Of a stretch of DNA of 54,866 nt, positions 5,116 through 20,907 are shown one piece after another. The stretch is from a virus (taxonomy: Duplodnaviria > Caudoviricetes), in the IMG/VR virus record IMGVR_UViG_3300013093_000004, positions 1-54,866 of that record, one strand, 5' to 3'. The position numbers and the translations under genes were made by a program. Each line of letters starts with the position of its first letter. The stretch's first letter is position 1. The notes beneath the pieces are model-generated. The model made no database searches. It had not been told where the DNA came from and saw only the letters and a list, made by a program, of their open reading frames with translations.

Positions 5116-5724
5116 ATGGCAAAACGCGGACGACCGGCCAAAGAGCCCAGCGAAGGCGACAGGGCAAAAGTCGCTGATTTACGGGCAAAAAAAGTACCCG
5201 TCGCTGATATAGCGGCGATCTTTCAGATGTCAGTTCCCACGCTGCGGAAATATTTTCGGGACGAATTTTTTACCGGAAAAAAAATCGCGGCGGAGAAAAA
5301 ACCAAGCCGCGAAGTCACCGAAGCCCTCCGGGCCAAGGTCACCCGGTATCTTGGTTATGGCATGGGCCCCGAAGACATCGCCCTGGCGATCGGGTACCAC
5401 GGCGAAGGCGAATACGAAAATTTCCGCGCCGACTATGCTCATGAATTGCGCATCGGCCGGGCGATCACCCGGGCTGAAACGATCGACCGCTTGGTCAACC
5501 AGAGTGCCGGCGGTCTGATCGGCGCCACCACCAAGCTGGAAGCGCTGAGCCGGCCAACGCCAACGAAGGAAGGGCCGGCGGCGCCAGCTGGGGAGTACAT
5601 CGGCAAAAAGACGGTCGCCAAAGCAGACGCGGCAACGGCCATTGCGGCGGGCGGAATGTTTGCCCCGCGCACCCCGCCTCGCCTTGCCGCCGTCAACGGT
5701 CAGCCGGTCACAAAGCCTGATTGA
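5116..5724 (+). CDS. terS: Terminase small subunit
   Basis: MAKRGRP start, HTH IAAIFQMSVPTLRKYF, C-terminal FAPRTPP; abuts terL. Confidence 0.8.
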   Translation: MAKRGRPAKEPSEGDRAKVADLRAKKVPVADIAAIFQMSVPTLRKYFRDEFFTGKKIAAEKKPSREVTEALRAKVTRYLGYGMGPEDIALAIGYHGEGEYENFRADYAHELRIGRAITRAETIDRLVNQSAGGLIGATTKLEALSRPTPTKEGPAAPAGEYIGKKTVAKADAATAIAAGGMFAPRTPPRLAAVNGQPVTKPD

Positions 5725-7505
5725 TGCTGGCCTGGTCGACTGCGTGCATCGATTGGCGCGAACGCATCATTGCCGGCAAGTCATTGTTGCCCTGCCCTCC
5801 TCTGTTCCCGGAGGAGGCAGAGGCGGCGCTGGCAGTGTTTCGCGATCTGCCGATCGTCGATGTCATGGGCAAACCCAGTTTTGGCGATATCGGGCGCCCT
5901 TGGACGTTTGATCTGCCTGCGGCTGTTTTCGGCGCTTACAACCCGGAGACGGGCCGGCGCGAGATCAACCAGTTCTTTGAGCTGATCGCCAAGAAGAACA
6001 CGAAATCGACCCGCGCTGCGGGGATCATGCTGACCGAGCTGATCCGCAACGATCGCTACAGCGCGCAATACACCATTCTGGCCCCCACGATCGAGGTCGC
6101 GAAGAATTCCGCTGAGCCGGCCATGGATTTTGTGGCCGAACACCCCGATTTGAAACGCATTTTGAAACCGGTCGCGCATCAGCGCTTGATCGAACACCGC
6201 GTGACAGGCGCACAATTGAAGATCCTGGCCGCCGACAGCGAAACTGTCGCCGGCGGCAAAACCACCGGATTGCTGATCGACGAACTTTGGCTGTTCGGCA
6301 AACGCCCCAATGCGAAGAACATGCTGCGCGAGGCGATGGGCGGTTTGGCGTCTCGACCTGAAGGGTTCGTGATCGCGCTGACGACTCAGGGGGATGCCCC
6401 GCCCGAAGGCGTGTTTCTGGATTGGTTGCGCCGGTTTCGCGACATTCGTGATGGCAAGTTGATCGCCCCGCGTTCGCTGGGCATGCTCTATGAATTCCCG
6501 GAAGATATGATCCGGTCGGAAGCCTATAAGGATCCGGCGAACTTCTATATCCCGAACCCCAATCTGGGCGCGTCTGTCGACGAACAGTTTTTGCTCGACG
6601 AATACGAAAAAGCCCAGCGCGAAGGCCAGAAATCGCTGGTCGGGTTTTTCGCCAAGCACTTGAACGTCGAACCAGGCATGGCAGCTCGGGCCGATACTTG
6701 GGCCGGCGCGGAATTCTGGAAACAGCGGGCAGATCCGGCAATCACGCTCGACGAAATCATTGCCCGGTGTGAAGTGGTGGTGATCGGCCTCGATGGCGGC
6801 GGCCTAGATGACCTTTACGGCATGACAGTGCTTGGCCGCGAAAGCGCCGAAGTCGAAGTGTCGGCCAAAGTGGCCGCCGACGAAAGCGAAGGCAGCATCG
6901 GCGGTAAACGTCAAATTAAACGGTGGCTGTCCTGGTCGCATGCATGGGCATCACGCATCGTGCTGGACCGCCGCAAATCGATCGCCGAAAAATTGCTCGA
7001 TTTGGAAAACGCTGGCGAGGTGACCATTCTGGAAAACGGCGAAGTCGACGAAAGTGGACAGCCCGCCGATATCGCCCAGATCATGGAAGTGATCATCCGC
7101 GTTCGCGATGCCGGACTGTTGTGCTGCGTCGCAGTTGACCCTGCCGGGCTTGGCGAGCTGATCGACGCTTTGGCTGATGCGCAGATCACCGAAGAAAACG
7201 CCAAAATTGGTCGCGATTATGTGATTGGCGCGCCTCAGGGCTATCGCATGATGACCGCGATGAAGACCGCCGAACGCAAACTTGCCAACGGCACCATGAT
7301 CCACGCTGATCAGCCCCTGATGGATTGGTGTGTGGCAAACTTGAAAATCGAGGCCACTGCCACCGCGATCCGCGCCACAAAGCAAACCGCTGGCGATGCA
7401 AAGATCGACCCAGCCATCGCGCTGTTCAACGCCGTGACGATCATGGCTGAAAACCCTGATGCGGTTGCCTCCGGTTACGAAACCAGGGGGCTGCTGATCA
7501 TCTGA
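5724..7505 (+). CDS. terL: Terminase large subunit
   Basis: Walker A-like IAKKNTKST, Walker B LLIDE, LTTQ motif III, nuclease GLDGGGLDD and KIDPAIA. Confidence 0.95.
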   Translation: MLAWSTACIDWRERIIAGKSLLPCPPLFPEEAEAALAVFRDLPIVDVMGKPSFGDIGRPWTFDLPAAVFGAYNPETGRREINQFFELIAKKNTKSTRAAGIMLTELIRNDRYSAQYTILAPTIEVAKNSAEPAMDFVAEHPDLKRILKPVAHQRLIEHRVTGAQLKILAADSETVAGGKTTGLLIDELWLFGKRPNAKNMLREAMGGLASRPEGFVIALTTQGDAPPEGVFLDWLRRFRDIRDGKLIAPRSLGMLYEFPEDMIRSEAYKDPANFYIPNPNLGASVDEQFLLDEYEKAQREGQKSLVGFFAKHLNVEPGMAARADTWAGAEFWKQRADPAITLDEIIARCEVVVIGLDGGGLDDLYGMTVLGRESAEVEVSAKVAADESEGSIGGKRQIKRWLSWSHAWASRIVLDRRKSIAEKLLDLENAGEVTILENGEVDESGQPADIAQIMEVIIRVRDAGLLCCVAVDPAGLGELIDALADAQITEENAKIGRDYVIGAPQGYRMMTAMKTAERKLANGTMIHADQPLMDWCVANLKIEATATAIRATKQTAGDAKIDPAIALFNAVTIMAENPDAVASGYETRGLLII

Positions 7506-7520
7506 ACACGGGACCACCGC

Positions 7521-7709
7521 ATGAACCGCTCGGCTCAAAATCTGCTGGCTGTCGTGCGGGATGCGATCGGCCTGGCTGGTCTGGGCGCCATCACGTTCGG
7601 CGCCTACCAGATCTACCATCCCGCCGGCTATATCGTCGGCGGCATGATCGCGGTCAGCGCGACCACGTTGCTGAATCTGGCCGCAATCAAGAAATCGGCC
7701 ATCAGCTGA
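7521..7709 (+). CDS. Small membrane protein between terminase and portal
   Basis: DAIGLAGLGAITFGAYQIYHPAGYIVGG; common at this position. Confidence 0.7.
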   Translation: MNRSAQNLLAVVRDAIGLAGLGAITFGAYQIYHPAGYIVGGMIAVSATTLLNLAAIKKSAIS

Positions 7710-9046
7710 TGGCAGGCGGTTTGTTTGGCGCCCTGGTGCGCGGCGCCCAGTTGGCAACGCGCGGGTTCCCCGGCGACACGGAATCATTCTGGAACGGCTA
7801 TTTCTGGTCGGCGCCGTCTGCGACCGGCATTCAGATCAATCAGCAGACCGCGCTGCAGGCGACCACCGTCATGGCCTGCGTGCGCATCCTGTCCGAAGAC
7901 GTTTCGAAAATGACGCCTCGGATGTACCGTCGCTATACCTCGGGCATCCATAAGAACGGCGCGCGCGAAAAACTGGACTCGGCCGACCATCCGCTTGCCA
8001 AGCTGCTGAAGCGGCCCAACGATTGGATGACCTGGCCGGAATTCTGCCGGATGATGATGATCGGCTACCTGCTGCGCGGGAACGCCTTTGCCGTCATTTT
8101 GCGCAATCGCCGCGGCGATCCGATTTCGCTGGTACCGATCAACCCCGATCGCGTGTCGCTGTGGCAGGCACCCGATGGCGGCCTGTTCTGGTGGGTTACC
8201 CGGTCGGGTCTGCATGAATTGAACGTGCTGGCACATGTGCCGCTGTTGATCCCTTACGAAGATGTGTTTCACCTGAAGGATCTGTCCGCCGATGGCCTGG
8301 TCGGCACCTCGCCGATCGCGCTGGCGCGTGAGGCAATCGGGCTCAGCCTGGCGCAAGAACAGCAATATGCTCGGCTGATGGGCAACGGCGCGCGGCCGTC
8401 CGGCGTGTTGTCCACGGAACAGCGTTTGACCGATACCAGTGCCGCCCGCATTCGCGCCGACTGGGAAGCGATGAATTCCGGCCTCGCCAACGCGGGACGC
8501 ACTGCGATTTTGGAACAGGGTCTGAAATGGACCCCGCTGACAATCACTTCGGTCGATCTGCAATTTCTGCAAATGCGACAATTTCAGGTTATCGAAATCT
8601 GCCGGATCTTTCGCGTGCCTCCGCACATGGTCGGCGACATGGCGCGCGGTTCGTTCAACAACATCGTGCAGCAAAGCCAGGAATACCGCAACCACACGCT
8701 GACCAGCCACACCGACATCTGGGAAAAGCGGTTCGCGTTCACGTTTGACCTGGTCGATGACATCGAAGAGGTCGATTTCGACGAAAGCGCTTTGCTCAAA
8801 GCCGACCTGACCGCCCGGTACAATGCCTATCGCGTCGGCGTGCTGACCGGGTGGGATACCCGCAACGAGGTCCGCGTCGCCGAAGGCAAGAACCCGCTTG
8901 ACGGGCTCGATGAACCAATGGCGCCGGCCAATGAAATCGACGGTTCAAAACTCGGCAGCGACATGGGCGGCGACAACCCCGGCGCCGGCCAGCCCAGCAC
9001 CAACATCGATGTGAACAACCAGCCCATCAATCAGGCAGATTCGTGA
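7709..9046 (+). CDS. HK97-family portal protein
   Basis: TVMACVRILSEDVSK, LLRGNAF, GTSPI, NGARPSGVL, EICRIFRVPPHMVG, NEVR. Confidence 0.96.
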   Translation: MAGGLFGALVRGAQLATRGFPGDTESFWNGYFWSAPSATGIQINQQTALQATTVMACVRILSEDVSKMTPRMYRRYTSGIHKNGAREKLDSADHPLAKLLKRPNDWMTWPEFCRMMMIGYLLRGNAFAVILRNRRGDPISLVPINPDRVSLWQAPDGGLFWWVTRSGLHELNVLAHVPLLIPYEDVFHLKDLSADGLVGTSPIALAREAIGLSLAQEQQYARLMGNGARPSGVLSTEQRLTDTSAARIRADWEAMNSGLANAGRTAILEQGLKWTPLTITSVDLQFLQMRQFQVIEICRIFRVPPHMVGDMARGSFNNIVQQSQEYRNHTLTSHTDIWEKRFAFTFDLVDDIEEVDFDESALLKADLTARYNAYRVGVLTGWDTRNEVRVAEGKNPLDGLDEPMAPANEIDGSKLGSDMGGDNPGAGQPSTNIDVNNQPINQADS

Positions 9047-10224
9047 TGAAACAGCGCCGTTCGGACAATCAGATGCTGCGCCGCTTCGTCAGCAGCGGTG
9101 TCACCGCGCTGTCGGATTATGAAATCGAGGTGATCGTCTGCACCAATGACGATCACGTTCTTGATGGCGATGTCTGGGACATGCAGGGCATCGATCTGAC
9201 CCGCTATCTGGCGCATCCGGTGGTGCTGTGGGATCACGACATGTCGCAGCCGATCGGTCGGGCGTCCGATCTGACCGTCACGCCGGAAAAGATCACCGCA
9301 AAGGTCACATTTCCCGACGAGGGAATTTCGCCCAAGGCCGACGAAATTCGCAAAATGGTCAAATCGGGCATGATCAGCGGCGTCAGCGGCGGCATCCTGC
9401 CCGTTCAATCCAGGCCGCTCGATCCCAAAAATCCGCGCTCCGGCAATCGCATCACCAAATCGATCCTGCTGGAATTCAGCATCTGCGCCGTCCCCGCCGA
9501 TGCATCATCGGGTGTGACTGCCCGATCCAATGGAGGCACCACCGTGGCTGACCCGACCGTCCCGACCGATGATGAAAAGGCCGCCGCTGCTGCCGCGCGC
9601 AAACGGGCTCTGGCAGTGCTGCCGCGCGGTTTGTATTCGGTCGGGCAGCTCGCCTATACTCTTTCGTCGCTTGGCTATCAGGCTGACAGCGCCAAGTATG
9701 AAGCGGAAATCGAAGGTGACGGCAGCAAGGTGCCGGCCATGTTGGCATCGGTTCTGCACGACCTGGGCGATGCGCTGATCGCGATGACGATCGAAGAGGT
9801 CGGCGAATTGCTCGCCGGGCACGACGTTGACGTCGAAGCCGATGATGACGATCTCGATCCCGACGAACGCGCCGCGATCGCCGGCACGGACAACGCCGCG
9901 CTGCGGGCATTCCGGCGCGGTGTGGCGCATGCCAAACAGCGCGTTGGCAAAAAGCTGTCGGCCGACACGGTTCGTTGCATCCGCAACGCGCTGGACGAAC
10001 ACGCCGCCGCCACCGCCGACGTTCGCGCGGCCGTTGCAAAACAGAAAAAGGCGCTCAGCTCGATCGAAGATTTGCTCGACGGTACCGATGACGGCACCGG
10101 CGACGGCAATCCCGAAGCGACCACCGGCAACGATGATGACGAAGACGCTGCCGCCGAACGCGCGTTGCGCGCCCGCGCCGCCCTCGCAAAGGCCCGCGCG
10201 CTCGAACTCACCGCGCCTGTCTGA
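9046..10224 (+). CDS. Prohead protease with C-terminal scaffold-like extension
   Basis: PVVLWDHD..PIGR, SGVSGG, LLEFSICAVPAD; acidic helical C-terminal half. Confidence 0.9.
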   Translation: MKQRRSDNQMLRRFVSSGVTALSDYEIEVIVCTNDDHVLDGDVWDMQGIDLTRYLAHPVVLWDHDMSQPIGRASDLTVTPEKITAKVTFPDEGISPKADEIRKMVKSGMISGVSGGILPVQSRPLDPKNPRSGNRITKSILLEFSICAVPADASSGVTARSNGGTTVADPTVPTDDEKAAAAAARKRALAVLPRGLYSVGQLAYTLSSLGYQADSAKYEAEIEGDGSKVPAMLASVLHDLGDALIAMTIEEVGELLAGHDVDVEADDDDLDPDERAAIAGTDNAALRAFRRGVAHAKQRVGKKLSADTVRCIRNALDEHAAATADVRAAVAKQKKALSSIEDLLDGTDDGTGDGNPEATTGNDDDEDAAAERALRARAALAKARALELTAPV

Positions 10225-10233
10225 CCCCTTCCT

Positions 10234-10329
10234 CTGACGCTCCCGCGTCAGTCGAACGCCCTTACCGCCGGTTGGGCACCGGCACTTGGCCCGTCGCGAG
10301 ACGGTCTTTTCCCTTTGATGGAGCCCCCC
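10234..10329 (+). ncRNA. Structured leader upstream of major capsid gene (copy 1 of repeated element)
   Basis: Three hairpins, ACGCCC linker and TTCCC..GATGGAGCCCC; same layout at 16036-16133. Confidence 0.55.
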
Positions 10330-11742
10330 ATGACCCGAACCCTTAAGGACGTTCGCAAGGAATATCGCGACGCCACCGATGAACTGCCGACCCTGACCCG
10401 CGACGCGGCGAAGTTTGCCGCGTGCGAAGCGCGCATCGCCGCGTTGGAAGAAGAACTGAACGTTTTCGAACGGGAAGCTCGTGCCACCGACATCCGCAAC
10501 CGCGCGCTGGCGGGTGTCGACACCTCGGCCGAGACCGACGGCGCGTCCGCCAACGGTGATTTCGTCGACAATTCGGCCGGCGCCTGGCGCTCGACGCAGG
10601 ATCTGGTCGCGCAGCGCAGCCGTGGACCGATTTCCCCGGCAGTGCGGTTTGCCGAACTGATGAGCCAAAGCCGGCGTTCGTGGGGCGTGCAACTCGACGC
10701 GCAGAAGCATTTTCGCAACCTGGGCGAACAGCTGCAGGCGATCGCGACGTACTATCTGCGCAAGGATGGCACCTGCGATGCCCGTCTGACCCGCGCGCCC
10801 ACCGGCGCGTCGGAAGTTGACCCAACCGGCGGCGGCTTTTTGCTGCAGACCGATTTTGCCAATGCGATCTGGATGCTTGCCCACGAAATGGGCGACATCC
10901 TGGGCGCGGTGAACGGTATTCCGATCTCGGGCAATTCGAACAGCCTGAAGATCCGCGGCGTGGACGAAACGAGCCGTGCTACCGGCAGCCGCTGGGGCGG
11001 TGTCGCGTCGAACTGGGTCGGTGAAGGCACGGCGGTCACCCCGTCGAAGCCGAAGTTCCGCCTGATCGAGTTCGATCTGAAAAAGCTGATGTCGGTGATG
11101 TACACCACCGAAGAGCTGATGCAGGACGCCCCGGCGCTGACCACGATCGCCGGCCAGGCATTCTCGGAAGAAATCATGTTCATGACCGAGGATGCCATCG
11201 TCAACGGCACCGGCGCGGGCATGCCGCTGGGCGTGCTGAACTCGCCGTCCCTTGTGACCGTGGCGAAGCAGCCCGGTCAGGCCAGCGGCACGATCGTCAA
11301 GGAAAACATCGACAACTTGTGGGCGCGCTGCTGGGCGCGCAGCCGCAAGAACGCGGTTTGGTACATCAATCAGGATTGCGAACCGCAGCTGAACCAGATG
11401 GGCCAGATCGTCGGCACCGGCGGTATGCCCGTCTATGTGCCGGCGGGCGGGCTGTCGGCCGCGCCGTTTGCCACGCTCTATGGCCGTCCGGTGGTCATCA
11501 CCGAATACAACGCTGCGCTGGGTACGCCGGGCGACATCCTGCTGGCTGACCTCAGCCAGTATACGAAGGTCGACAAAGGCGGCGTGCAGGCGGCCACCTC
11601 GATGCACGTGGCATTCCTGACCGATGAAAACGTGTTCCGCGTCACATATCGCGTCGATGGCAAGCCGATGTGGACCACCGCCATCACGCCGTACAAGGGC
11701 ACGCTGACCAAATCGCCGTTCCTGGCGCTCGCGCAGCGCTGA
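10330..11742 (+). CDS. Major capsid protein (HK97 fold)
   Basis: GGFLLQTDF, WVGEG, KKLMSVMYTTEELMQD, NGTGAGMPLGVL, TLYGRPV. Confidence 0.96.
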   Translation: MTRTLKDVRKEYRDATDELPTLTRDAAKFAACEARIAALEEELNVFEREARATDIRNRALAGVDTSAETDGASANGDFVDNSAGAWRSTQDLVAQRSRGPISPAVRFAELMSQSRRSWGVQLDAQKHFRNLGEQLQAIATYYLRKDGTCDARLTRAPTGASEVDPTGGGFLLQTDFANAIWMLAHEMGDILGAVNGIPISGNSNSLKIRGVDETSRATGSRWGGVASNWVGEGTAVTPSKPKFRLIEFDLKKLMSVMYTTEELMQDAPALTTIAGQAFSEEIMFMTEDAIVNGTGAGMPLGVLNSPSLVTVAKQPGQASGTIVKENIDNLWARCWARSRKNAVWYINQDCEPQLNQMGQIVGTGGMPVYVPAGGLSAAPFATLYGRPVVITEYNAALGTPGDILLADLSQYTKVDKGGVQAATSMHVAFLTDENVFRVTYRVDGKPMWTTAITPYKGTLTKSPFLALAQR

Positions 11743-11846
11743 TCGGGCCTACCACCCAACGATAACGGGCGCGGTTCCCCACCGCGCCCGCACATATCCT
11801 TGCCGCTTTGGGGGGCGGCACGCGCGTTCTGCGCAAGGAGCCCATC

Positions 11847-12335
11847 ATGGCACGCAATTTTTCGATGGTTTACCAGATCCCGCCGGTTGCACTGCTTGCT
11901 CCGGCCGCCGACGCCGCCGGCCGCGCCAGTCCGTACCGCACGTTGAAAAACGCGGCGGACAAAGCCTACATCGTTTGCCACATCAACCAAGGCAACGCGG
12001 CGCAGGTCACCCTGACCCCCTATCAGGCCAAGGATGTGTCCGGCACCGGGGCAAAGGCAATCAATGCCGTGCCGATCTTTTTGAACGATGCCACCGCGAC
12101 CAGCGATGCGTTCGTTCAGCAAACGTCGGCGGCCAATTTCCAGACCGACGCTACCATCGCTGACAAAATCGTAATTTTCGAAATCACTCCCGATGTGGCG
12201 CTCGATTTGGTCAATGGCTATCGCACCATTGGTGTGACCACCAGCGCCTCGAACGCGGCCAACATCACCGAGGCCACCCTGTTCGTCCTGGGCGCGATTC
12301 AGGGGGCCTCAGCCCCGACCACTTACAGCAACTGA
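11847..12335 (+). CDS. Putative capsid decoration/cement protein
   Basis: AGGAG RBS; beta-rich; directly after capsid gene. Confidence 0.55.
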   Translation: MARNFSMVYQIPPVALLAPAADAAGRASPYRTLKNAADKAYIVCHINQGNAAQVTLTPYQAKDVSGTGAKAINAVPIFLNDATATSDAFVQQTSAANFQTDATIADKIVIFEITPDVALDLVNGYRTIGVTTSASNAANITEATLFVLGAIQGASAPTTYSN

Positions 12336-12427
12336 CGAATTACCCCGGCGTGGCCGCCTTATGGCCGCGCCGGCCTTCGTTGTTTCCCTTTCGCGCGGCG
12401 TGATCGCATTGCGCAGGAGATTCGGTC

Positions 12428-13180
12428 ATGACCACCAAGGGCATCTACAAATATGGATTTGCCGTCGAATATGACGATGGCACGCAGGAATTTTTGGCGA
12501 CCTCCGCGCCGATCGATTTCAACGACGATTTCGTCGGCGCCGGCCACACTGCCAGCTTGCCGCAATTCGGCAGCCCGGTCGCGGGCTATCCCTGGGTTCA
12601 GAAAGTGGTCAAAACGGCGGGCACGCCGTCGGTCGCGGCGGTAACCAATGGCCCGGGTGGCCAGATCGCCATGGCGCTGACCAACACCAGCGAAGCGCAG
12701 GAAGCCACGCTTTACCAGAACGATCAGCGCACTTGGGACAGCACCAAGACGTTGATCTATCAGGCTCGCACCCAATTGACCGTGCTGCCCAGCGCCGCCG
12801 GTGTGCAGGCGGTGTTTGGCCTGGCCGGGGCGTGGGCCAGTGGCCCGCTGAATATCGGCACCTACATTTTCTTCGGCTGCAACGGTTCGGGCGAACTGTT
12901 CATGTACAGCTATGACGGCACCACGACCAAGGCGGTCGATACCGGCATCGCGCTGACTGCGGGCGTGTATTACCAGTTCCGCATCGAAATCGATCAATCG
13001 GGCGTGTTGCACTTCTATGTCAATGGGGTGGAATATACCACTTCGTTGGCACCGATCACTTGGGCTGCCACCGGCACCCCGGCGATCTTGCAGCTGTACA
13101 ATTCGGTCTACAAGCCCAGCGGCACTGGCGTAGCCACGCTCAACCTCGACAGCGTCGAGGTGTGGTCGCCGCGCACGTAA
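12428..13180 (+). CDS. Virion protein, ConA/lectin-like beta-sandwich
   Basis: FNDDF...DTGIALTAGVYYQFRIEI...HFYVNG. Confidence 0.55.
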   Translation: MTTKGIYKYGFAVEYDDGTQEFLATSAPIDFNDDFVGAGHTASLPQFGSPVAGYPWVQKVVKTAGTPSVAAVTNGPGGQIAMALTNTSEAQEATLYQNDQRTWDSTKTLIYQARTQLTVLPSAAGVQAVFGLAGAWASGPLNIGTYIFFGCNGSGELFMYSYDGTTTKAVDTGIALTAGVYYQFRIEIDQSGVLHFYVNGVEYTTSLAPITWAATGTPAILQLYNSVYKPSGTGVATLNLDSVEVWSPRT

Positions 13181-13206
13181 TCGCGCGCGCTCGATACCTG
13201 GCACCA

Positions 13207-13240
13207 TTCGTCATCCCGGGTTTGATCTCGGGATGACGAA
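13207..13240. repeat. 12-bp perfect inverted repeat, REP-like
   Basis: TTCGTCATCCCG-N10-CGGGATGACGAA. Confidence 0.7.
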
Positions 13241-13254
13241 ACAGGGAAAAAGTC

Positions 13255-13599
13255 ATGGCCTATATCGAATTTCAGACTGCGACGATCGCGGCCAGCGCGT
13301 CGCTGTCTTCCGAAGTGCCGTTGGGCGAAAAATCACTTGTCGGGATCGTCATGCCCCCCGCATGGACCGCCGCATCGTTGACTTTTCAAGCGACGCCCGA
13401 CGATACCAATTTCTATGAACTCTATGACGGTGCCGGCAACGAAGTGACGGTGGTCGCTGGTGCTGGACAATTCGTTCAAGTTGATCCCACCAAATGGCGC
13501 GGAATTACCGGGATCAAAATCCGCAGTGGTACCGCTGCCGGCCCGGTCAATCAGACCAGCGCCGTGACGCTCACGCTTGTCACTCGCACGATCTACTGA
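13255..13599 (+). CDS. Hypothetical virion protein
   Basis: GIVMPPAWTAASLTFQ; in head operon. Confidence 0.6.
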   Translation: MAYIEFQTATIAASASLSSEVPLGEKSLVGIVMPPAWTAASLTFQATPDDTNFYELYDGAGNEVTVVAGAGQFVQVDPTKWRGITGIKIRSGTAAGPVNQTSAVTLTLVTRTIY

Positions 13600-13602
13600 C
13601 CC

Positions 13603-14520
13603 ATGGGCATCGCGGCTGGCCGGATCAGCACTGTTACCGCTTCATCGGCCAGCTACGCGCTGGTCGATCTGGCAACAGCGAAAAACGAATTGAACATCCG
13701 CGCGAATGACACGACCAACGACACCGCGCTGACCCGAACGATCAATTTCGTCAGTCAGATCATCGCCAACTATTGCGGCGGCCCGTTTGGCCCTTTCGCG
13801 GTCGAAGCGGTGACCGATACGTTCCAGTTTGATCGTGATGCGTTCCCGGGGATTCGCTTTGCCGGCGAAAACCGCATTGCATTGGCCCGCTGCCCGTTGC
13901 TGTCGATCGGCGCTGTGGTGCAGACCAACACCGACGGATCGACCACGACGCTGGTCCAGGGCACCGATTACCTGCTCAATGCCAAACAGGGCGAACTGAT
14001 GCGGCTCAGCTGCACCGGCGCGCTGATGCGGTGGGAAACGCTGCCGCTGTCGGTGTCCTATGTGGCCGGCTATGGCGCGCTGATCACCGCAGAGGCGCAA
14101 ACCGTGCCCGGATCCGCCCCGTATACCGTCAACGCCACCAATGCGGCCACTTTCGCATTTGATCAGGGCGTTACCTATGCCAACGGCACTCCGCTGACCC
14201 TTGTCGCTGCCAACCCTGCCCATGGTCAGTACAGTGTGGCCAACGGTGTTTACACTTTCGCCGCCGCCGATGCGCACGCCGCCGTGCTGCTGGCCTATGC
14301 CTATAACCAGATTCCCTATGATCTGGTCAGCCATGCGCTGGAAATCGTCACTGCGCGCTGGGCCAGTCGCGGTCGCGACCCCGCGCTGGTGCAGGTGGAT
14401 ACTCCCGGCATCGGCACGCAGCGGTTCTGGTTCGGCAGCGAGCCTGGACAGGATGGCGAACTGCCGCCGCGCATCGCCGCAGCGCTGGACAACACCTATC
14501 GACCTCCACGGGTGGCGTGA
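13603..14520 (+). CDS. Head-tail connector (gp6-like) with inserted beta domain
   Basis: LVDLATAKNELNI...IANYCG...VSYVAGY...IPYDL. Confidence 0.75.
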   Translation: MGIAAGRISTVTASSASYALVDLATAKNELNIRANDTTNDTALTRTINFVSQIIANYCGGPFGPFAVEAVTDTFQFDRDAFPGIRFAGENRIALARCPLLSIGAVVQTNTDGSTTTLVQGTDYLLNAKQGELMRLSCTGALMRWETLPLSVSYVAGYGALITAEAQTVPGSAPYTVNATNAATFAFDQGVTYANGTPLTLVAANPAHGQYSVANGVYTFAAADAHAAVLLAYAYNQIPYDLVSHALEIVTARWASRGRDPALVQVDTPGIGTQRFWFGSEPGQDGELPPRIAAALDNTYRPPRVA

Positions 14521-15020
14521 TGGACATTCGCTTTGACATCAAGAACGCGCGACAGGTCGGGCTGCGCTTTGACCAGTTTCCGCCCGAAATTTACGACGAT
14601 CTGCGCATCGCCATCAACGATCTGGCCCATCAGCTGTTTGCCTTGGTCCAATCCGAAACGCCTGATCTGACCGGACAACTGCGCGGCCAGGAAATGGTCC
14701 GCGTGTTCACCGATCCCAAAAAGATCACCGGGTCGGTCGCCGTGGTGACGCGTGACAAGCAATCGGCGATCAAAGCGGCGACGCTGGAATATGGCAGCAC
14801 CGGCAAATCGGTGAAGGTCAAAAGCAAAACCATGCGGCTGGACCACGTTTTTGACCACGTCTTGGACGAGCCGATGGAGGTTATCGTCAAGGCCTATAAT
14901 CGCACACCGAACGTCGAAGAATTCCGCTTTGAACGCGGCCCGCTGGAAGTGATGCAGCCGATCGTTGCCGCGCGGCTGAATGCGGTGGTTGCCGCCGCGG
15001 TCAAGGCCGCGAACGCATGA
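14520..15020 (+). CDS. Neck/tail completion protein (HK97 gp10-like)
   Basis: TPDLTGQLR, LEYG motifs; position. Confidence 0.6.
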   Translation: MDIRFDIKNARQVGLRFDQFPPEIYDDLRIAINDLAHQLFALVQSETPDLTGQLRGQEMVRVFTDPKKITGSVAVVTRDKQSAIKAATLEYGSTGKSVKVKSKTMRLDHVFDHVLDEPMEVIVKAYNRTPNVEEFRFERGPLEVMQPIVAARLNAVVAAAVKAANA

Positions 15021-15691
15021 ACGCCGATTTCTACATGATCAAAACCGCGCTGCTCAATCAATTGACCGGCGCGGTCATGCCGACCTTTACCGCCGGGGCA
15101 ACGGCCAACAGTGCCACGCTTACCGCGCCCAGTTCGATCGCCGGCCTGTTTACCGGGCTGCCGGTGTTCGGCATCGGCGCGGCGGCTGGCGTCACCATCG
15201 CGGCAATCGCCGCCAATGGATCATCGATCACGCTGTCGCAGCCGATGACCACGGACACCGTTGGGACGACCACCGCATTCGGCGCCGGATTTGTGCAAAC
15301 CGGCGCGCGCGCGGTGCGGTGGAACGATGTTGCCGATCAACCCGCGCTGTTCTTGCGCCGCGTCGCCGTACACGACGATGAAGAAGGCGACGGCCTGGTG
15401 CGCACCGCGCTTGATTTTGAAGCGTGGATCTACAGCAACGCCGGCGCCGATGGCGATGTCGATCCCGATGTCACGCTGTCCGCGCTTGAACAATTGGTGC
15501 GCAACGCGATCAACCCCGATCTGCTGCCCCATGACAATGACGAAGGCCGGTTCACCCTCGCCACCGCGCTGGCAGCGCTGGGCCTGCCGCCTGCCTATTG
15601 GTGCCGGGTCACCGGGCATTCGATGATTTTCACCGGTGATCAGGGGCCGCAGGCCATCGCCCGCATCCCGATCCGCGTCACGCTCCCCTGA
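15017..15691 (+). CDS. Putative tail terminator with inserted domain
   Basis: WNDVADQPALFL...FEAWIY...ARIPIRVT; position before tail tube. Confidence 0.55.
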   Translation: MNADFYMIKTALLNQLTGAVMPTFTAGATANSATLTAPSSIAGLFTGLPVFGIGAAAGVTIAAIAANGSSITLSQPMTTDTVGTTTAFGAGFVQTGARAVRWNDVADQPALFLRRVAVHDDEEGDGLVRTALDFEAWIYSNAGADGDVDPDVTLSALEQLVRNAINPDLLPHDNDEGRFTLATALAALGLPPAYWCRVTGHSMIFTGDQGPQAIARIPIRVTLP

Positions 15692-15710
15692 TCCTGAAAG
15701 GACCGCTGCA

Positions 15711-16016
15711 ATGTCCACCAACGCCGACATCGTCAATGGCTGGTTCGCCGACCGGCTGGCCAATGGCCCGATCGCACGCAATACCGAAGCATACAATCAG
15801 GCTCAAGCCGCGCTGACCGATCTGATCGCCCGGCTGGATGCTGCCGCCGCGCCCGCGCCGGCCGACGCTGCAGCCACGCCCGCCACGCCGTCCAAGCCGA
15901 CCGCAGCGCAAAAGGCAGCGGCCAAGATCGCCGCCGACGCTGCCGTGTTGTCGGCCGATGAAGCGGCTGTGGCTCAAGATACCGCGTCGGCCTCGACTGG
16001 CTCGACTGCCGCGTAA
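15711..16016 (+). CDS. Ala-rich hypothetical protein
   Basis: AAGGA RBS before ATG 15711. Confidence 0.6.
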   Translation: MSTNADIVNGWFADRLANGPIARNTEAYNQAQAALTDLIARLDAAAAPAPADAAATPATPSKPTAAQKAAAKIAADAAVLSADEAAVAQDTASASTGSTAA

Positions 16017-16035
16017 CCAGCGCGGTTTTGGAATA

Positions 16036-16133
16036 CCCCGACGGTGTTGTCGGGGCACGCCCCTAACGGCCCTTGGGCAAGGCTGCTGACCCCGCTGTGA
16101 AGCGCACGTCCTTCCCATCGATGGAGCCCCCAC
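16036..16133 (+). ncRNA. Structured leader upstream of major tail gene (copy 2 of repeated element)
   Basis: Same hairpin order and motifs as 10234-10329. Confidence 0.55.
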
Positions 16134-16895
16134 ATGACCGTCCTGAATGGCAAACCGACTTTCGGCGTTGGCCGCGCCTTCGCCATCCCGAATGTCACCA
16201 ATCCGACCCCAACCCGCCTGCTGATCCCGCAGAGCCAGTCGATCGACATCAAATCCAAGGTGGAAGAACTGTTCGGCGAAAACATCTTTGCCGAAGCGAC
16301 CGCCAAGGGTGAAACGTCGATCACCGGCAAAGTCGAATACGGCAAATCGGTGGCCAGCGTGCTGGCCAACATCATCAGCGGCGATGGCTCGACCACCGGC
16401 AGCTATGCCGAAGCGGACAAAGAAGCTGGCACCGTTCCGGCCAGCACGCCCTACACTTATACCGCCGTCAATGCCGCCACGTTTCTGTTTGACCTGGGCG
16501 TGCGCAATGTCACGACCGGCGCGATCTATTCGTGCGTGGCCAGCGGCAGCGAGGTCGCGGGCAAAAGCTATTCGGTCGCGGCCGGCGTCTACAAATTTGC
16601 CGCGCTCGATGCCAATGCCAACGTGCAGGTATCCTACGCCTATTCGGTCACTGCATCGGGCGTGACGGTCAATCTGGCCAACCAGGTGCAGGGCCCGTCG
16701 ACCAGCTTTGAAGCGGTGCACGTGTTCCCGTGGGGTACCGAACAGGACATGGTGGTGCTCAACAACTGCATCGCGTCCAGCAGCAGCCTGCTGTCGGCCA
16801 AAAAGAGCGGCTTCGGCATGTCGACGCTCGATTACACCGCTGCGGTGAACGCCAGCGGCACGCTGGGCACCATCACGTTCGCCGAACAGAACTGA
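16134..16895 (+). CDS. Major tail tube protein
   Basis: PTFGVG...SIDIKSKVEELFGENIFA...KGETSITGK; precedes chaperones and tape measure. Confidence 0.8.
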   Translation: MTVLNGKPTFGVGRAFAIPNVTNPTPTRLLIPQSQSIDIKSKVEELFGENIFAEATAKGETSITGKVEYGKSVASVLANIISGDGSTTGSYAEADKEAGTVPASTPYTYTAVNAATFLFDLGVRNVTTGAIYSCVASGSEVAGKSYSVAAGVYKFAALDANANVQVSYAYSVTASGVTVNLANQVQGPSTSFEAVHVFPWGTEQDMVVLNNCIASSSSLLSAKKSGFGMSTLDYTAAVNASGTLGTITFAEQN

Positions 16896-16913
16896 TCAGG
16901 GGCCTGATCCGGC

Positions 16914-17285
16914 ATGATCGCCCGCACCATCGACGAACGCCGCGCGCTGGGTCGCGCGCGGCGGCTGGTGTTTCAGAACATCGCCAACGGTGTGCCGATC
17001 GAACGCATCCGCGAAGACATGCGCCTGTCCGATATCGAAATCGAACAGGCGCGTGGCTTTGTCGCGCGCAAGATCTTGGAAAACCGCACCCTGCGCCGGC
17101 AACCGCCAATTCCCTGTCTGACGCAGGCGGAAATCCGGTTTCACCGCCGCGCACTGTTGGGCACGCTGTCGCTGATCGGTGATGTCGACCTGTCCACCGA
17201 CTTGATCCTTTCAAAGCTGCTGGTCCAATCGATCGATCATCCCAGCATGCTGGAAGAAGCAAAACAACGGATGGACGCTGCATGA
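16914..17285 (+). CDS. Hypothetical protein
   Basis: ORF in tail operon; stop overlaps next start. Confidence 0.6.
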   Translation: MIARTIDERRALGRARRLVFQNIANGVPIERIREDMRLSDIEIEQARGFVARKILENRTLRRQPPIPCLTQAEIRFHRRALLGTLSLIGDVDLSTDLILSKLLVQSIDHPSMLEEAKQRMDAA

Positions 17286-17695
17286 TCACCCATCGCGATA
17301 TCACTCTGGGATTTGAAACCTTTCGTGTTCCGCCGCTGCCCATCCGGTGGAATCGAGAGGTCTATCCGCTGTGCGCTCGCCTTAGCGAATCCGATCTCGA
17401 AACGCGTTGGCTGGTGCACCAAGGCAAACTGCGGTTTGACGATCAGGAATTCGCTGATCTGTGCGATATCGCCTGGTACCTGACCCGCGCTGCCGGTGCC
17501 GAATTCGATCGAGCCACGTTCGATGCCTGGCCGATCAATTCGGTGCAACTGATGTTGGCGTTTTATGCGGCGCGCTATCAGACCGGGGTGTGGATTCCAG
17601 TCGAGGCCCCGGATGGCGCAGGCAAAGAGCCGGACCAACAGCCGGGGGAATCGATCGGGGAGCCGGAACCCCGAAAAAAACGCCGCCGCAAATAG
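17282..17695 (+). CDS. Tail assembly chaperone (G-like)
   Basis: Upstream of tape measure; slippery A7 at 17674-17680. Confidence 0.7.
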   Translation: MITHRDITLGFETFRVPPLPIRWNREVYPLCARLSESDLETRWLVHQGKLRFDDQEFADLCDIAWYLTRAAGAEFDRATFDAWPINSVQLMLAFYAARYQTGVWIPVEAPDGAGKEPDQQPGESIGEPEPRKKRRRK

Positions 17696-17955: not shown

Positions 17956-20907
17956 ATGGCCAACAACATTGCCGTTCAGATCACCGCTGACGTCGCCGAT
18001 CTGACCGCAAAATCGGCGATCGCGCGCGCCGATATGGCCGCCACGACCAAGGCGCTGAACGACCTGGCCAAGCAAGCGCGCGGCACGGCCATGACAACCG
18101 AATTGCAAACCTCATTGTTGCAAGCCGGCGATGCGGCGGCCAAAGCCAAAAACCAATACGCGGCGATCACCCAAGAATTGACAAAAATGCGGCCCGCTGC
18201 CGAAGGCGCTATGCACGGATCTGCCGGCGTAACGCGCGAGCTGCTGGTGATGGGTCGCGAACTGTCGCGCGGCAATTTCAACCGCATGGCTGGCAGTGCC
18301 ACAATTCTGGCGGGTCGGCTGGGCGTCCTGACCCCTGCGGTCATCATGACGGTCGGCGCCATCGCCGCCTTGGCTGCGCCGTTCGTTGCGTTTGCTGTCG
18401 CCGCTGAACAAGGCAGCCAGGAAGCGGCCAAATTCAAAAACGCGATCGAGGCGACCAACGGCTATGCCGGGGTAACCGAATCGCAATTGCAGAACCTGTC
18501 GCGCAGCATGGCGACCTGGGCGCATGTCGGTATCGGCGCGGCCAATGAAGCGTTGATGAAGATCGTCGCATCGGGTCATTTTTCCGGCGACACCATGCGG
18601 CTGGTCGGCGAAGACGCGGTACGCATGGGCCAACTGACCGGCCAATCTGCTGACAAATTCATCGACGAGTTCGACAAAATGAAATCCGGCGTGGCCAAGT
18701 TCGCGCAGGAATACAACGATCAGTACCATCAGCTATCGCTGGCCCAGTTTGAATATATCCGCACACTGGAAGAACAAGGCCGCAAAGAAGAGGCCGAATA
18801 CGCGCTTGCCCAGAACGTTTACAATTACCTCGGCAAGCAGGCGCCGCAAAACCTCGGGTATCTGGAATCGGCGTGGCATTCTTTGTCGAAAGCGGCTTCC
18901 GACGCGTGGGATTCGATGAAGGCATGGGGGCGCAACAGCAACCAGGATCAAATCGATGATTTGAACCAGCGGATTGCGCTGATGAAGCGCGACCCGAACG
19001 CCAACAAGGGTGGTGCGGTTTCGCGGGAAATTGCCGGGTTGGAACGCCAGCTGCAGTTGGTCCAACAGCGCGAAGCGAGCGAACAGCGCGCAGCCGCCTC
19101 GCGCGCCGAACAAGCCCGCACGCAAAGCGATGGTGTCGATGCCGCAGCCAGGTTGGCTGAAAAGTTCGAAGCATCCAAGACCAGCGGCGAAAAGCTGAAA
19201 AAGGCGATCGCTGATATCAACAACGATCTGGCCAAAGCGGTCAAGGCCGATCCCGCCAATGCTGCGCGGTATGAAGCAGAGGCTGCCGCGGCGCGTGCGC
19301 AAGCGCAAAAATCCGATACCCCGCATGCGCCCAAAGTTCATGACGATATCGTCGCGCAATGGACCGAACAGCTTCACGCGCAGGAAATCGCCAGCAAAGA
19401 CTTTTTCAAGGACAACACCGCCGACGAACTGGCGTTCTGGCAATCAAAGCTGGCGCTGGTCGCCAAGGGGTCCAAGGATTGGTTGGCAGTCCAGACCAAG
19501 ATTTATGAACTCAGCAAAACGATGGCGCATCAGGCTTATGACGCCAAGATCGCCGATTACAATGAACAAATCGCCGCCGCTCGCGACAATTGGTCGAAAG
19601 AGCAAGCCGATATTCAGGCCAAGCTTTCCTATGTCAAATCGACTCAGGGCGAACAAAGCCGCGCCTACAAAGACGCCCACCGCGAACTGGAAACCGCCCA
19701 GCGCGAGCACGACGATCGCGAATTGCGCGAAGCGCAGGAACACACCAAGCGGCTGTACGATGACCTGAAAATCCGCATCGATGCTCAGGCCAAGGCGCGC
19801 GAAGACGATGCCCGCGCGGCTGAGGCGGTGGTCAAGGGCAATGCCGGCGCGACCCCGTTCGGCGAAATCGCTGCGCAGCGCCAACTGGCTGAAATCCATC
19901 GCCAGTTGACCGAACAGAAGATTGCCGACAACGAAACGCTCTACGCTTCGCAATCGGCGGGGCTGCAAGCCGATATCGACAAGGCTGCCGCGCTCTATAA
20001 CGGCGACCAAAGCAAATATCAGGCGCTGCTCGATGCCAAGGCCAAGGCGGACCAGCAATACGCCGCGCGCAAACAGGAACTCGATGCCCAATTGCGCATG
20101 CAGTCCATTCAGGACATGCAGGCCCTGCAAAACACCTATGCCAGCTATATCAGCGGGACGGTCAATGCCACGGTTACCGGGTTCAGCAAGATGATCGGCG
20201 GCCAGGAATCGTGGCGCAACCTTGGCATAAGCATCTATCAGTCAATGGTCCGCGAGGCGGAACAGCAGATTGAAAAGCTGGTCACCAACTGGATTGTTCA
20301 GCACGTTTTCATGACCGCCGAACAGCGCGCCGAACTGGCCGCGCAGAAGGCTGCACACGCGGCAAGCGAGGCGGCCAAGACGGCGACAACCACCACCAGC
20401 ACTGCCGCGCAAACATCGGCAGTAGTGGCCGGCGGAGCGACGCAGACTGCTGCGATGATGGCAACGACCAAGGCACAAGTCGCGTTGCTGGCCGGCCTCG
20501 CTGGCGCCGGCGGCGTTGCTTCAATGGCAGCGGCACCCTGGCCGATCGATATGACTGCGCCCGCGTTCGGCGCTTCGATGGCGGCATCCGCGATGTCGTT
20601 CGGTGCGTTCGAAAAAGGGCTCGACATCGTGCCCAACGACATGATCGCGCAAGTCCACGAGGGCGAGCGCATCATTCCAAAGGCCGATAACTCCGCTCTG
20701 ATCAATCTGGCCGCGCGCGGCGCCGGGATGGCTGGTGGCGCCGGCTCGGCCGGCGGCGCGGCTGGCGGCGACACCCATAACCACTTCGCGCCAGTCATTC
20801 ATGCCAATGGCGTCGATCCCAAATCGGTGATGCAGGCGCTGGAAAGCAACTTTGGTGATTTCACCAGTCTGCTGAAGCGAGCAGCGCGCAACGGTGCTTT
20901 CCGCTGA
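17956..20907 (+). CDS. Tape measure protein
   Basis: 983 aa Ala/Gln-rich helical protein; NIAVQITAD start; C-terminal FEKG..VPNDMIAQVHEGERIIP. Confidence 0.93.
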   Translation: MANNIAVQITADVADLTAKSAIARADMAATTKALNDLAKQARGTAMTTELQTSLLQAGDAAAKAKNQYAAITQELTKMRPAAEGAMHGSAGVTRELLVMGRELSRGNFNRMAGSATILAGRLGVLTPAVIMTVGAIAALAAPFVAFAVAAEQGSQEAAKFKNAIEATNGYAGVTESQLQNLSRSMATWAHVGIGAANEALMKIVASGHFSGDTMRLVGEDAVRMGQLTGQSADKFIDEFDKMKSGVAKFAQEYNDQYHQLSLAQFEYIRTLEEQGRKEEAEYALAQNVYNYLGKQAPQNLGYLESAWHSLSKAASDAWDSMKAWGRNSNQDQIDDLNQRIALMKRDPNANKGGAVSREIAGLERQLQLVQQREASEQRAAASRAEQARTQSDGVDAAARLAEKFEASKTSGEKLKKAIADINNDLAKAVKADPANAARYEAEAAAARAQAQKSDTPHAPKVHDDIVAQWTEQLHAQEIASKDFFKDNTADELAFWQSKLALVAKGSKDWLAVQTKIYELSKTMAHQAYDAKIADYNEQIAAARDNWSKEQADIQAKLSYVKSTQGEQSRAYKDAHRELETAQREHDDRELREAQEHTKRLYDDLKIRIDAQAKAREDDARAAEAVVKGNAGATPFGEIAAQRQLAEIHRQLTEQKIADNETLYASQSAGLQADIDKAAALYNGDQSKYQALLDAKAKADQQYAARKQELDAQLRMQSIQDMQALQNTYASYISGTVNATVTGFSKMIGGQESWRNLGISIYQSMVREAEQQIEKLVTNWIVQHVFMTAEQRAELAAQKAAHAASEAAKTATTTTSTAAQTSAVVAGGATQTAAMMATTKAQVALLAGLAGAGGVASMAAAPWPIDMTAPAFGASMAASAMSFGAFEKGLDIVPNDMIAQVHEGERIIPKADNSALINLAARGAGMAGGAGSAGGAAGGDTHNHFAPVIHANGVDPKSVMQALESNFGDFTSLLKRAARNGAFR

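Follow-up and report, generated by a model that had tools for sequence, protein, structure and literature searches.

Tailed phages need hundreds of capsid and tail-tube subunits, and few copies of the products of neighbouring genes, from one late operon. To our knowledge the setting of virion protein ratio is understood for only a few model phages. The hairpins of the 5′ untranslated region (UTR) of Escherichia coli ompA, the leader of the T7 capsid gene (gene 10) and the segmental stability of Rhodobacter puf are cases of stabilisers or enhancers, each at a single locus. The put RNAs of phage HK022 occur in two copies per phage genome, as cis-acting helical domains that follow early promoters and are not known to be tied to a ribosome-binding site. 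Flaviviruses and plant viruses carry RNAs resistant to exoribonuclease (Xrn1), with a compact pseudoknotted fold at the 5′ border of the RNA that accumulates. Here we describe a structured RNA leader that occurs twice in the virus record IMGVR_UViG_3300013093_000004 (Caudoviricetes), in front of the major capsid gene and of the probable tail-tube gene. The whole of this stretch, 54,866 bp long, complete as a virus record and bearing terminal repeats, is called the window in what follows.

Conserved structures upstream of phage genes have been catalogued in a 2023 survey (PMC10690425), which gives 8,495 candidate structured RNAs, named ‘DNAVirus_n’, from intergenic regions of IMG/VR. Five of its candidates are typically upstream of the major capsid protein domain (PHA00201), and its main text does not describe them. 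Full-text literature searches returned no description of the present motif, and the main text of PMC10690425 names no capsid-leader model.

RESULTS

Two leaders of one architecture. The leaders, at 10234-10332 and 16036-16136, have one ordered architecture built on different stems. The order common to both is a hairpin P1, the tetranucleotide GCCC, a hairpin P2 whose loop GGGC can pair with that GCCC, a GNRA hairpin P3, UUCCC, GAUGGAGCC and AUG. Both have the linker ACGCCCyUAmCG after P1, the P2 apex UUGGGCA, and GAUGGAGCCCCC followed by AUGACC. The parts are as follows.

10234-10251, plus strand: P1 of the capsid copy, CTGACGC-TCCC-GCGTCAG, by sequence and fold; it begins 10 nt past the protease stop codon
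10258-10261, plus strand: pseudoknot 5′ strand GCCC of the capsid copy, pairing with loop GGGC at 10274-10277
10267-10283, plus strand: P2 of the capsid copy, GCCGG/CCGGC with loop UUGGGCA; GGGC at 10274-10277 is the pseudoknot 3′ strand
10291-10304, plus strand: P3 of the capsid copy, CCGUC-GCGA-GACGG with a GNRA loop, by sequence and fold; terminator-like in a scan
10309-10313, plus strand: pyrimidine tract UUCCC of the capsid copy, by sequence and family alignment
10317-10325, plus strand: ribosome-binding block GAUGGAGCC (DNA GATGGAGCC) of the capsid copy, with GGAG at 10320-10323; conserved family columns
10330, plus strand: ATG of the capsid gene
16036-16055, plus strand: P1 of the tail copy, CCCCGAC-GGUGUU-GUCGGGG, by sequence
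16059-16062, plus strand: pseudoknot 5′ strand GCCC of the tail copy, pairing with GGGC at 16075-16078
16069-16083, plus strand: P2 of the tail copy, GCC/GGC with CUU-GGGC-AA between the arms (GGGC at 16075-16078); model R2, described below, aligns it to the family consensus
16093-16104, plus strand: P3 of the tail copy, CGCU-GUGA-AGCG, a GNRA hairpin, by sequence and R2 alignment
16112-16116, plus strand: UUCCC of the tail copy, by sequence
16120-16128, plus strand: ribosome-binding block GAUGGAGCC (DNA GATGGAGCC) of the tail copy, by sequence
16134, plus strand: ATG of the tail gene

Word counts and folding of the window give little signal. GATGGAGCCCCC with up to two mismatches occurs twice against a shuffle mean of 8.06, and TTGGGCA occurs 11 times against 10.7 expected, so that neither is above chance in the window; folded as single sequences, the capsid copy has z = -2.0/-1.8 and the tail copy +0.8/-0.3, which is a weak signal. 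It is comparison with other genomes that makes the observation solid.

Covariance models and searches. When the capsid gene was used for protein searches, bacterial genomes yielded 10 loci and IMG/VR contigs 71; the upstream regions of these loci, read by eye, have the same architecture with differing stems. Two patterns derived from P2 added at least 120 further viral stretches and 73. Two covariance models were prepared: R1 from 24 seed copies, including both window copies, and R2 from 22 copies in other phage contigs, with no window sequence. R1 finds exactly two matches in the window, at 72.4 and 62.7 bits, the next scoring 9.4. R2 finds the two sites at 62.2 and 61.0 bits (E ~5e-15 and ~1e-14), and the next-best score is 10.2 bits among the 26 matches listed (filters off, both strands); this is the decisive test of the two leader copies.

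Across the 81 capsid- or tail-homologue loci R1 has 37 matches, all on the gene strand and just upstream of the capsid gene, and on the viral loci derived from the patterns it has 54 matches in 97 and 50 in 96. As a specificity control, 120 stretches of bacterial genomes with the same 16-letter P2 word gave one strong match (L313) and one borderline one. The pooled family holds 143 rows, representing 116 distinct copies in viral and prophage DNA. Five whole bacterial genomes with a copy have one to four matches each, nine in total, eight of which precede prophage open reading frames (ORFs) with capsid, tube-like or unlabelled products; the remaining match scores 25.2 bits and is not followed by an ORF. 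These genomes are Roseiarcus fermentans and metagenome-assembled genomes (MAGs) of a member of the Casimicrobiaceae, of the Rhizobiales, of the Sphingomonadales and of an alphaproteobacterium. The Roseiarcus copy (locus L004) lies in a prophage of an isolate genome, that of strain DSM 24875.

Among 50,697 cultured phage records, BLASTN with the leader gave chance matches only, a canonical copy gave no match at E <= 1, and a further search gave short partial matches. The best partial match, in Pseudomonas phage STP12, was rejected: read by eye it is not the motif, and the model scores 11.6 bits elsewhere in that record. Three cultured phages with related capsid proteins (hosts Bradyrhizobium, Ralstonia and Clostridium) have no R1 match at E <= 1. 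Rfam 15 has no match at gathering score in the whole window; in the region 9900-16400 it gives three chance-level matches (E 3.6-8.5), none on either leader, and in five loci with canonical copies none at E <= 1.

Covariation and strand. The alignment to the model holds 84 copies. Of its cells 91.1% are paired, compared with 74.5% after shuffling, and each of the 11 modelled pairs (three in P2, eight in P3) varies at both partners. For the three P2 pairs that the model retains, pairing reaches 99.6%. The covariation score is 0.376 against 0.131 in shuffles, with none of 500 shuffles as high and slid controls at or below 0.081. An independent alignment of the seed set with MAFFT and RNAalifold also has exchanges in P3, UA (14) with CG (10) and GC (13) with CG (8). 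P2 and P3 include some G-U pairs, which the opposite strand would turn into A-C, so the folded molecule is the sense transcript. The leader is a real RNA structure on the coding strand.

Pseudoknot. GCC:GGC is invariant, so only the fourth pair is informative. Among 94 distinct copies this pair is G-C in 58, U-A in five, A-U in four and C-G in five. The 72 Watson-Crick cases compare with 46.5 expected, and none of 100,000 shuffles is as high, statistics that are inflated by kinship among the copies. Where the loop letter is not G, 14 of 29 copies are Watson-Crick, and neighbouring (slid) positions reach only 20-38%. The 22 exceptions include C opposite U (seven), U opposite C (three) and others, two being G-U wobbles. 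Pseudoknot pairs were counted by script; MAFFT left the 5′ strand out of register. We regard the pseudoknot as well supported but not proven. An alternative P2, in which GCC pairs with the loop GGC, was given by RNAalifold on the seed set and was rejected, because the variants GUC/GAC, AGC/GCU, GAGC/GCUC and GAGAC/GUCUC cannot form it.

An initial annotation, made from the letters of the window, had listed the elements of both leaders, had proposed pairing of loop GGGC with linker GCCC, and had left the RNA without a named family. Every listed element is read at its position in both copies, the pairing is backed by covariation of the fourth pair, and searches found no Rfam match. The covariance-model comparison that it suggested has been run, and finds homologues with covariation upstream of capsid and tail genes elsewhere.

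Family anatomy. P1 is a hairpin of free sequence that ends 0-4 nt before GCCN in 79 of 93 copies, and in a few copies it resembles the terminator of the upstream gene. GCCN is followed by a joiner of 3-10 nt and then by P2, whose stem of 3-5 bp is highly variable (GCC/GGC, GCCG/CGGC, GUC/GAC, AGC/GCU, GAGC/GCUC, GAGAC/GUCUC, CGGC/GCCG, CCGC/GCGG) and encloses CUU (103/109), NGGC and AA (107/109). About 8 nt separate P2 from P3, an 8-bp hairpin with a GUGA or GCGA cap, commonly with an internal mismatch and occasionally duplicated. Then come a pyrimidine tract, typically (A)UUCCC, the block GAUGGAGCC, 5-11 nt ahead of the start codon, and the start codon itself; in most copies a YUCC tract stands 4-8 nt ahead of GGAG. 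The distance from P2 to the Shine-Dalgarno sequence runs from 8 to ~100 nt, with the autonomous P3 between.

Features of an intrinsic terminator at P3 differ between copies: most copies lack a U-run after it and have AUUCCC there instead. The P3 of the window capsid copy passes a simple scan, and a clear U-run is present in five related copies. At these loci (L053, L058, L059, L070 and L071, all upstream of capsid genes) a terminator-like hairpin stands in place of P3, its run of 5-7 U immediately ahead of the Shine-Dalgarno sequence.

Genes behind the leader. The start codon lies 1-7 nt past the model end in 94 of the 111 copies that have a downstream ORF, and for 92 an ORF of 80 codons or more, on the same strand, ends close upstream. 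The 111 downstream ORFs yield 109 distinct proteins, which were sorted by Pfam and PHROG tallies, clustering and scans of representatives. Capsid proteins make up 62 of the 109 (55 of HK97 type, four phrog_1005, and one each Phage_capsid_4, phrog_371 and phrog_212), tail-tube proteins 23 (nine lambda-like, seven TP901-1-like, six Phage_tube_2, one Ig-type) and a cement protein one. The other 23 are unlabelled, and no label other than a virion one was found among the 109. The element is thus associated with major capsid and tail-tube genes.

Seventeen of the unlabelled proteins fall in two clusters with Atlas leads to the SU10 capsid or YomU tube. The first is formed by nine proteins of 495-538 aa in phrog_13692 (L177, L126, L179, L214, L231, L235, L240, L265 and L266). 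Their Atlas lead is to the SU10 capsid, at 15% of one cluster; they have no Pfam or PDB match, and the AlphaFold model of the group, with a predicted local distance difference test score (pLDDT) of 29, is too poor for fold searches. From context and the Atlas lead, they are probably a major capsid family that has escaped annotation. The other cluster, of eight proteins, is that of the 253-aa tail protein of the window. Sequence searches of the PDB yielded nothing of use.

The regions behind motif-led genes also fold more stably than those behind control ORFs called mechanically. Their best 50-nt energy has a median of -24.7 kcal/mol against -20.8 kcal/mol for the controls (n = 95 and 638), and values of -25 or lower occur in 46% and 19% respectively (Mann-Whitney p = 3e-9). 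Both leader-led genes of the window have hairpins behind them.

Modules and lability. The motif is labile as well as modular. L032 and L050, capsid-homologue loci outside those with a match at E <= 0.01, carry the pseudoknot/P2 and the Shine-Dalgarno block without P3. Of the 116 matches seven have no recognisable P2, and most of these keep P3, the pyrimidine tract and the Shine-Dalgarno block; among the seven, L015 retains the P2 loop sequence, L021 is truncated by a contig end, one lies before a gene for a protease-capsid fusion and another before a cement gene. The modules are separable and seemingly additive.

The 3′ module by itself (GNRA hairpin, UCCC and Shine-Dalgarno block) is seen at L016 8425-8488, L100 545-621 and 11660-11725, L219 5951-6046 and L275 1667-1732. 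The genes behind these copies are a tube-like gene, a gene for a protease-capsid fusion, one for a 157-aa protein of unknown function, one for a cement protein and a capsid gene.

Contigs with two or three copies are L016, L088, L100, L122, L219, L275, and L230 taken with L243. Copies from one genome often resemble each other more than they do copies from other genomes, and the likeness, which reaches into the first codons, suggests duplication or gene conversion.

The sharing within a phage can extend over the ribosome-binding block and the first two or three codons, as with ATGACC in the window (10317-10335 and 16120-16139) and ATGGCTACT in L122 (1031 and 5744). L243 524 and L230 1461, which are on one contig, have nearly the whole pseudoknot-P2-P3 stretch in common.

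The initial annotation had proposed that the leader co-regulates the translation, processing or stability of capsid and tail-tube mRNA. The tie to both gene types holds in many phages, and the word ‘co-regulates’ proves too narrow: among relatives of the capsid gene the motif is usually on the capsid gene only, and modules occur separately.

Environmental RNA. Parts of the window region 9000-17500 are present in 24 lake-water metatranscriptome runs (24 coded studies, 2017-2018), 12 of which hold at least half of the sampled words. Each leader is covered, along with the gene ahead of it, by contigs from these RNA libraries (10190-10535, 10116-10435, 15874-16987 and 15858-16475), which fits an internal, co-transcribed leader, DNA carry-over in the libraries being possible. 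One contig (run X1) starts at 10255, between P1 and the pseudoknot, and was not taken as evidence of an RNA 5′ end. Likewise contig depth and uncovered parts were not taken as evidence of expression level.

Genome context. The left arm of the window is a standard head-tail module.

5721-7505: large terminase gene
7709-9046: portal gene
9043-10224: prohead protease gene, with stop codon TGA at 10222-10224
10330-11742, plus strand: major capsid protein gene, HK97 type, 470 aa (Pfam Phage_capsid, 1.7e-42; phrog_10, major head protein)
11767-11790, plus strand: 10-bp G+C hairpin just past the capsid stop codon, by fold
between the capsid gene and the 253-aa protein gene: head-tail genes
16134-16895, plus strand: probable major tail (tube) protein gene, 253 aa (position; phrog_8234; Atlas lead)
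16938-16963, plus strand: 10-bp G+C hairpin, 43 nt past the tail gene stop codon, by fold and scan
between the 253-aa protein gene and the tape-measure gene: two small ORFs
17956-20907: tape-measure gene

No Pfam family covers the 253-aa protein, which belongs to phrog_8234, of unknown function. Its nearest Atlas clusters carry YomU_Tube or have the name ‘Phi13 family major tail protein’ (score 0.97-0.98, a lead only), and its AlphaFold model, at pLDDT 52, is too poor for fold searches. Position and Atlas neighbours make it a probable tail tube.

The hairpin at 11767-11790 is a possible 3′ boundary of a stable capsid mRNA segment. Another strong G+C hairpin, at 12345-12373 after the ORF that follows the capsid gene, has z = -4.15 and is terminator-like in the scan. 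These two and the hairpin at 16938-16963 may bound stable mRNA segments or may be partial terminators.

A 250-aa ORF at 12428-13180, between the capsid and connector genes, encodes a Laminin_G_3 (concanavalin-like lectin) domain; its product may be a capsid decoration or fibre protein.

The protease stop codon and the capsid ATG are in one frame, with no stop between them (10225-10329), so readthrough of the protease stop would give a protease-capsid fusion in the window. The tail copy, unlike the capsid copy, has an in-frame stop.

DISCUSSION

The reading that we favour, with moderate confidence, is that of a mobile cis-acting 5′ leader which, by way of host machinery, increases the translation of the highest-copy virion genes, the stability of their mRNA, or both. 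It would be a modular, horizontally mobile leader RNA of ~100 nt between cistrons of the late (virion) operon, immediately ahead of those genes whose products are wanted in the largest numbers, namely major capsid, tail tube and at times cement protein. It consists of a variable P1, an H-type pseudoknot GCCN:NGGC with conserved CUU and AA joiners, one or two GNRA hairpins, UUCCC and GAUGGAGCC. The compact stable 5′ structures would shield the downstream cistron from 5′-end-dependent decay (by RNase E or RNase J) and, together with a 3′ hairpin, would delimit a long-lived mRNA segment, while efficient initiation, independent of what lies upstream, would come from the pyrimidine tract and the fixed Shine-Dalgarno block. 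Structure, conservation, strand, position and gene association are matters of observation; from them we infer the effect on stability or translation and the use of host factors. Action would most likely be through the host rather than a phage protein: with downstream proteins so diverse, a shared partner, probably from the host, is a better explanation than autoregulation by the gene product. A post-transcriptional cassette best fits the link to the ribosome-binding site, the site within the operon, the high-copy genes, the separable modules and the 3′ hairpins.

Several points weigh against this reading. The motif is present at E <= 0.01 in only 26 of the 64 distinct capsid-homologue loci with enough upstream sequence, and the closest relatives after L012, namely L013 and L014 (66-67% capsid identity), have unrelated hairpin leaders, so the motif is dispensable or replaceable. 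Predicted accessibility of the ribosome-binding site is 0.467 in native and 0.460 in shuffled leaders (p = 0.19, n = 49); a leader that insulates the ribosome-binding site, which we had considered, thus finds no support in folding predictions. A generic stabiliser has no need of an invariant CUU-NGGC-AA loop and a pseudoknot, so a specific partner is likely, candidates being the ribosome or S1, a nuclease, or a regulator. The subgroup with terminator-like hairpins (L053, L058, L059, L070 and L071) fits a role at the level of transcription better. On the side of method, the 84-copy alignment was fitted to the model and favours structure somewhat, and the controls in the 3′-stability comparison are mechanical ORFs.

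Other explanations assign the fold to a different step. We hold it unlikely that the leader is a regulatory operator, in which the pseudoknot and P2 bind a common trans factor (a phage or host RNA-binding protein, or a small ligand) and repress or time capsid and tube translation, with UUCC:GGAG as the switch. Protein-binding leader pseudoknots are known, that of T4 gene 32 among them according to the main text of PMC10690425. The unpaired CUU (103/109), AA (107/109) and NGGC, invariant and set on a compact pseudoknot, do resemble a recognition surface, and the YUCC tract ahead of GGAG would suit the switch. Yet at least 10 unrelated capsid and tube families are represented among the downstream proteins, which makes autoregulation by the product unlikely, and the pseudoknot stands 8 to ~100 nt from the Shine-Dalgarno sequence with an autonomous P3 between. 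In the alignment and copies examined no alternative pairing linking the two was seen, no riboswitch model in Rfam matched, and the loop variant UGGC alters the 5′ partner, not UUCCC. On the proposed UCC:GGA pairing covariation is uninformative, GGAG being nearly invariant. Processing of the transcript is a still less likely alternative: as a host endoribonuclease substrate or a small self-cleaving RNA, the leader would be cut to uncouple the capsid or tube cistron from the upstream message. Its intercistronic position and its compact conserved core with a pseudoknot would suit such a role, and P1 could stay behind as the 3′ hairpin of the upstream fragment. No ribozyme or RNase substrate model in Rfam matched, however, and modules occur separately, which a catalytic core would not tolerate.

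An element of transcription, either a put-like antitermination site or an attenuator, by which polymerase would continue into or beyond the capsid and tail genes, is about as doubtful. A pair of copies in one genome, alike in architecture and unlike in stems, recalls putL and putR of HK022; five related copies have a terminator-like hairpin with a U-run after P2, the P3 of the window capsid copy is flagged as terminator-like, and strong hairpins lie behind motif-led genes. Against these stand the tie to ribosome-binding site and start codon (94/111), a position that is intercistronic (92 upstream ORFs) rather than behind the operon promoter, the marking of highest-copy genes rather than operon starts, the lack of a U-run after P3 in most copies, and the RNA-library contigs that span the leader. 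Least credible, to the point of being hardly tenable, is a function in DNA or in recoding, with the TTGGGCAA core serving as a sigma-54-type or other late promoter or as a protein-binding inverted repeat, or with readthrough or frameshifting fusing protease to capsid. TGGCA resembles the sigma-54 -24 box, and protease and capsid frames coincide in the window with no stop from 10225 to 10329. The sigma-54 consensus is GG-N10-GC, however, and this fixed spacing is absent, GG being followed by the next GC at N9-N12 in L001, L003, L004 and the window; moreover a sequence-specific DNA site does not allow for compensatory stem changes. As for recoding, the frame is shared in 32 of 92 cases, which is chance level, only 14 have no intervening stop, and the tail copy has one in frame.

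A more speculative proposal, unlikely and drawn by analogy, is that the P1-pseudoknot-P3 fold is a bacterial counterpart of the viral exonuclease-resistant RNAs, exchanged by phages of freshwater and soil Proteobacteria as a mobile, mechanically robust ‘expression cassette’ and set ahead of any gene whose product is required by the hundred. If it were true, 5′-to-3′ decay or RNase E scanning would stop at the 5′ face, the rest of the late transcript would be lost before the capsid and tube cistrons, and the stoichiometry of the virion proteins would be set post-transcriptionally.

One RNA fold marks high-copy genes in uncultured phages as well as in alpha- and betaproteobacterial prophages, across at least five capsid and at least five tube families, which points to a shared, transferable post-transcriptional device working through host machinery. 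For annotation, the covariance model can flag major capsid and tube genes in unannotated viral contigs, and it already points to phrog_13692 and phrog_8234. The leader is also a compact natural candidate for an expression part in G+C-rich bacteria, its pseudoknot is tractable for structural study, and the prophage copy in Roseiarcus fermentans DSM 24875 makes experiments possible.

COMPARISON WITH KNOWN SYSTEMS

In position the motif is like the stabiliser and enhancer leaders, being a structured 5′ UTR directly before the ribosome-binding site of high-copy genes. ompA and T7 gene 10 likewise have leaders directly before the ribosome-binding site of abundant proteins, and in puf hairpins bound a stable segment within an operon. 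These systems are not known to have a conserved pseudoknot, whereas here a sequence family extends across unrelated phages and genes. HK022 put differs in that the present motif stands between cistrons of the late region and takes in the Shine-Dalgarno block; the put-type position, behind the operon promoter and independent of a ribosome-binding site, is not that of the motif, and no sequence or model match between the two was found. With the exoribonuclease-resistant RNAs the relation would be one of pure analogy, and the nuclease here would be bacterial RNase J or RNase E. The pseudoknot riboswitches (preQ1, SAM-II/V, guanidine-III, fluoride), in which a Shine-Dalgarno sequence or terminator overlaps the aptamer and is switched by ligand, have no Rfam match in the leader, whose Shine-Dalgarno sequence lies outside P2, behind P3.

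The T4 gene 32 leader resembles the motif in having an H-type pseudoknot 5′ in a phage mRNA leader, upstream of the ribosome-binding site, according to the main text of PMC10690425. It differs in that a G+C-rich GNRA hairpin, not an unstructured tract, here separates the pseudoknot from the ribosome-binding site, and in that the downstream gene of a T4 gene 32-type system encodes a nucleic-acid-binding self-repressor, whereas the products here are capsid and tube proteins of many families. The catalogue of PMC10690425 shares with our family its IMG/VR source and its conserved structures within 25 nt upstream of phage genes, and its main text says nothing of a pseudoknot, of modular anatomy or of a link to tail-tube genes; its supplement may include the motif under a number, among the 8,495 models. 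The likenesses to T4 gene 32, put, ompA, T7 gene 10 and the exonuclease-resistant RNAs are, as analogies, functional only, and most of the defining features that were examined are absent from the leader. Set beside these systems, the leader is a real, widespread and so far undescribed structured RNA that marks major capsid and tail-tube genes, and for which we infer a mechanism of enhanced expression.

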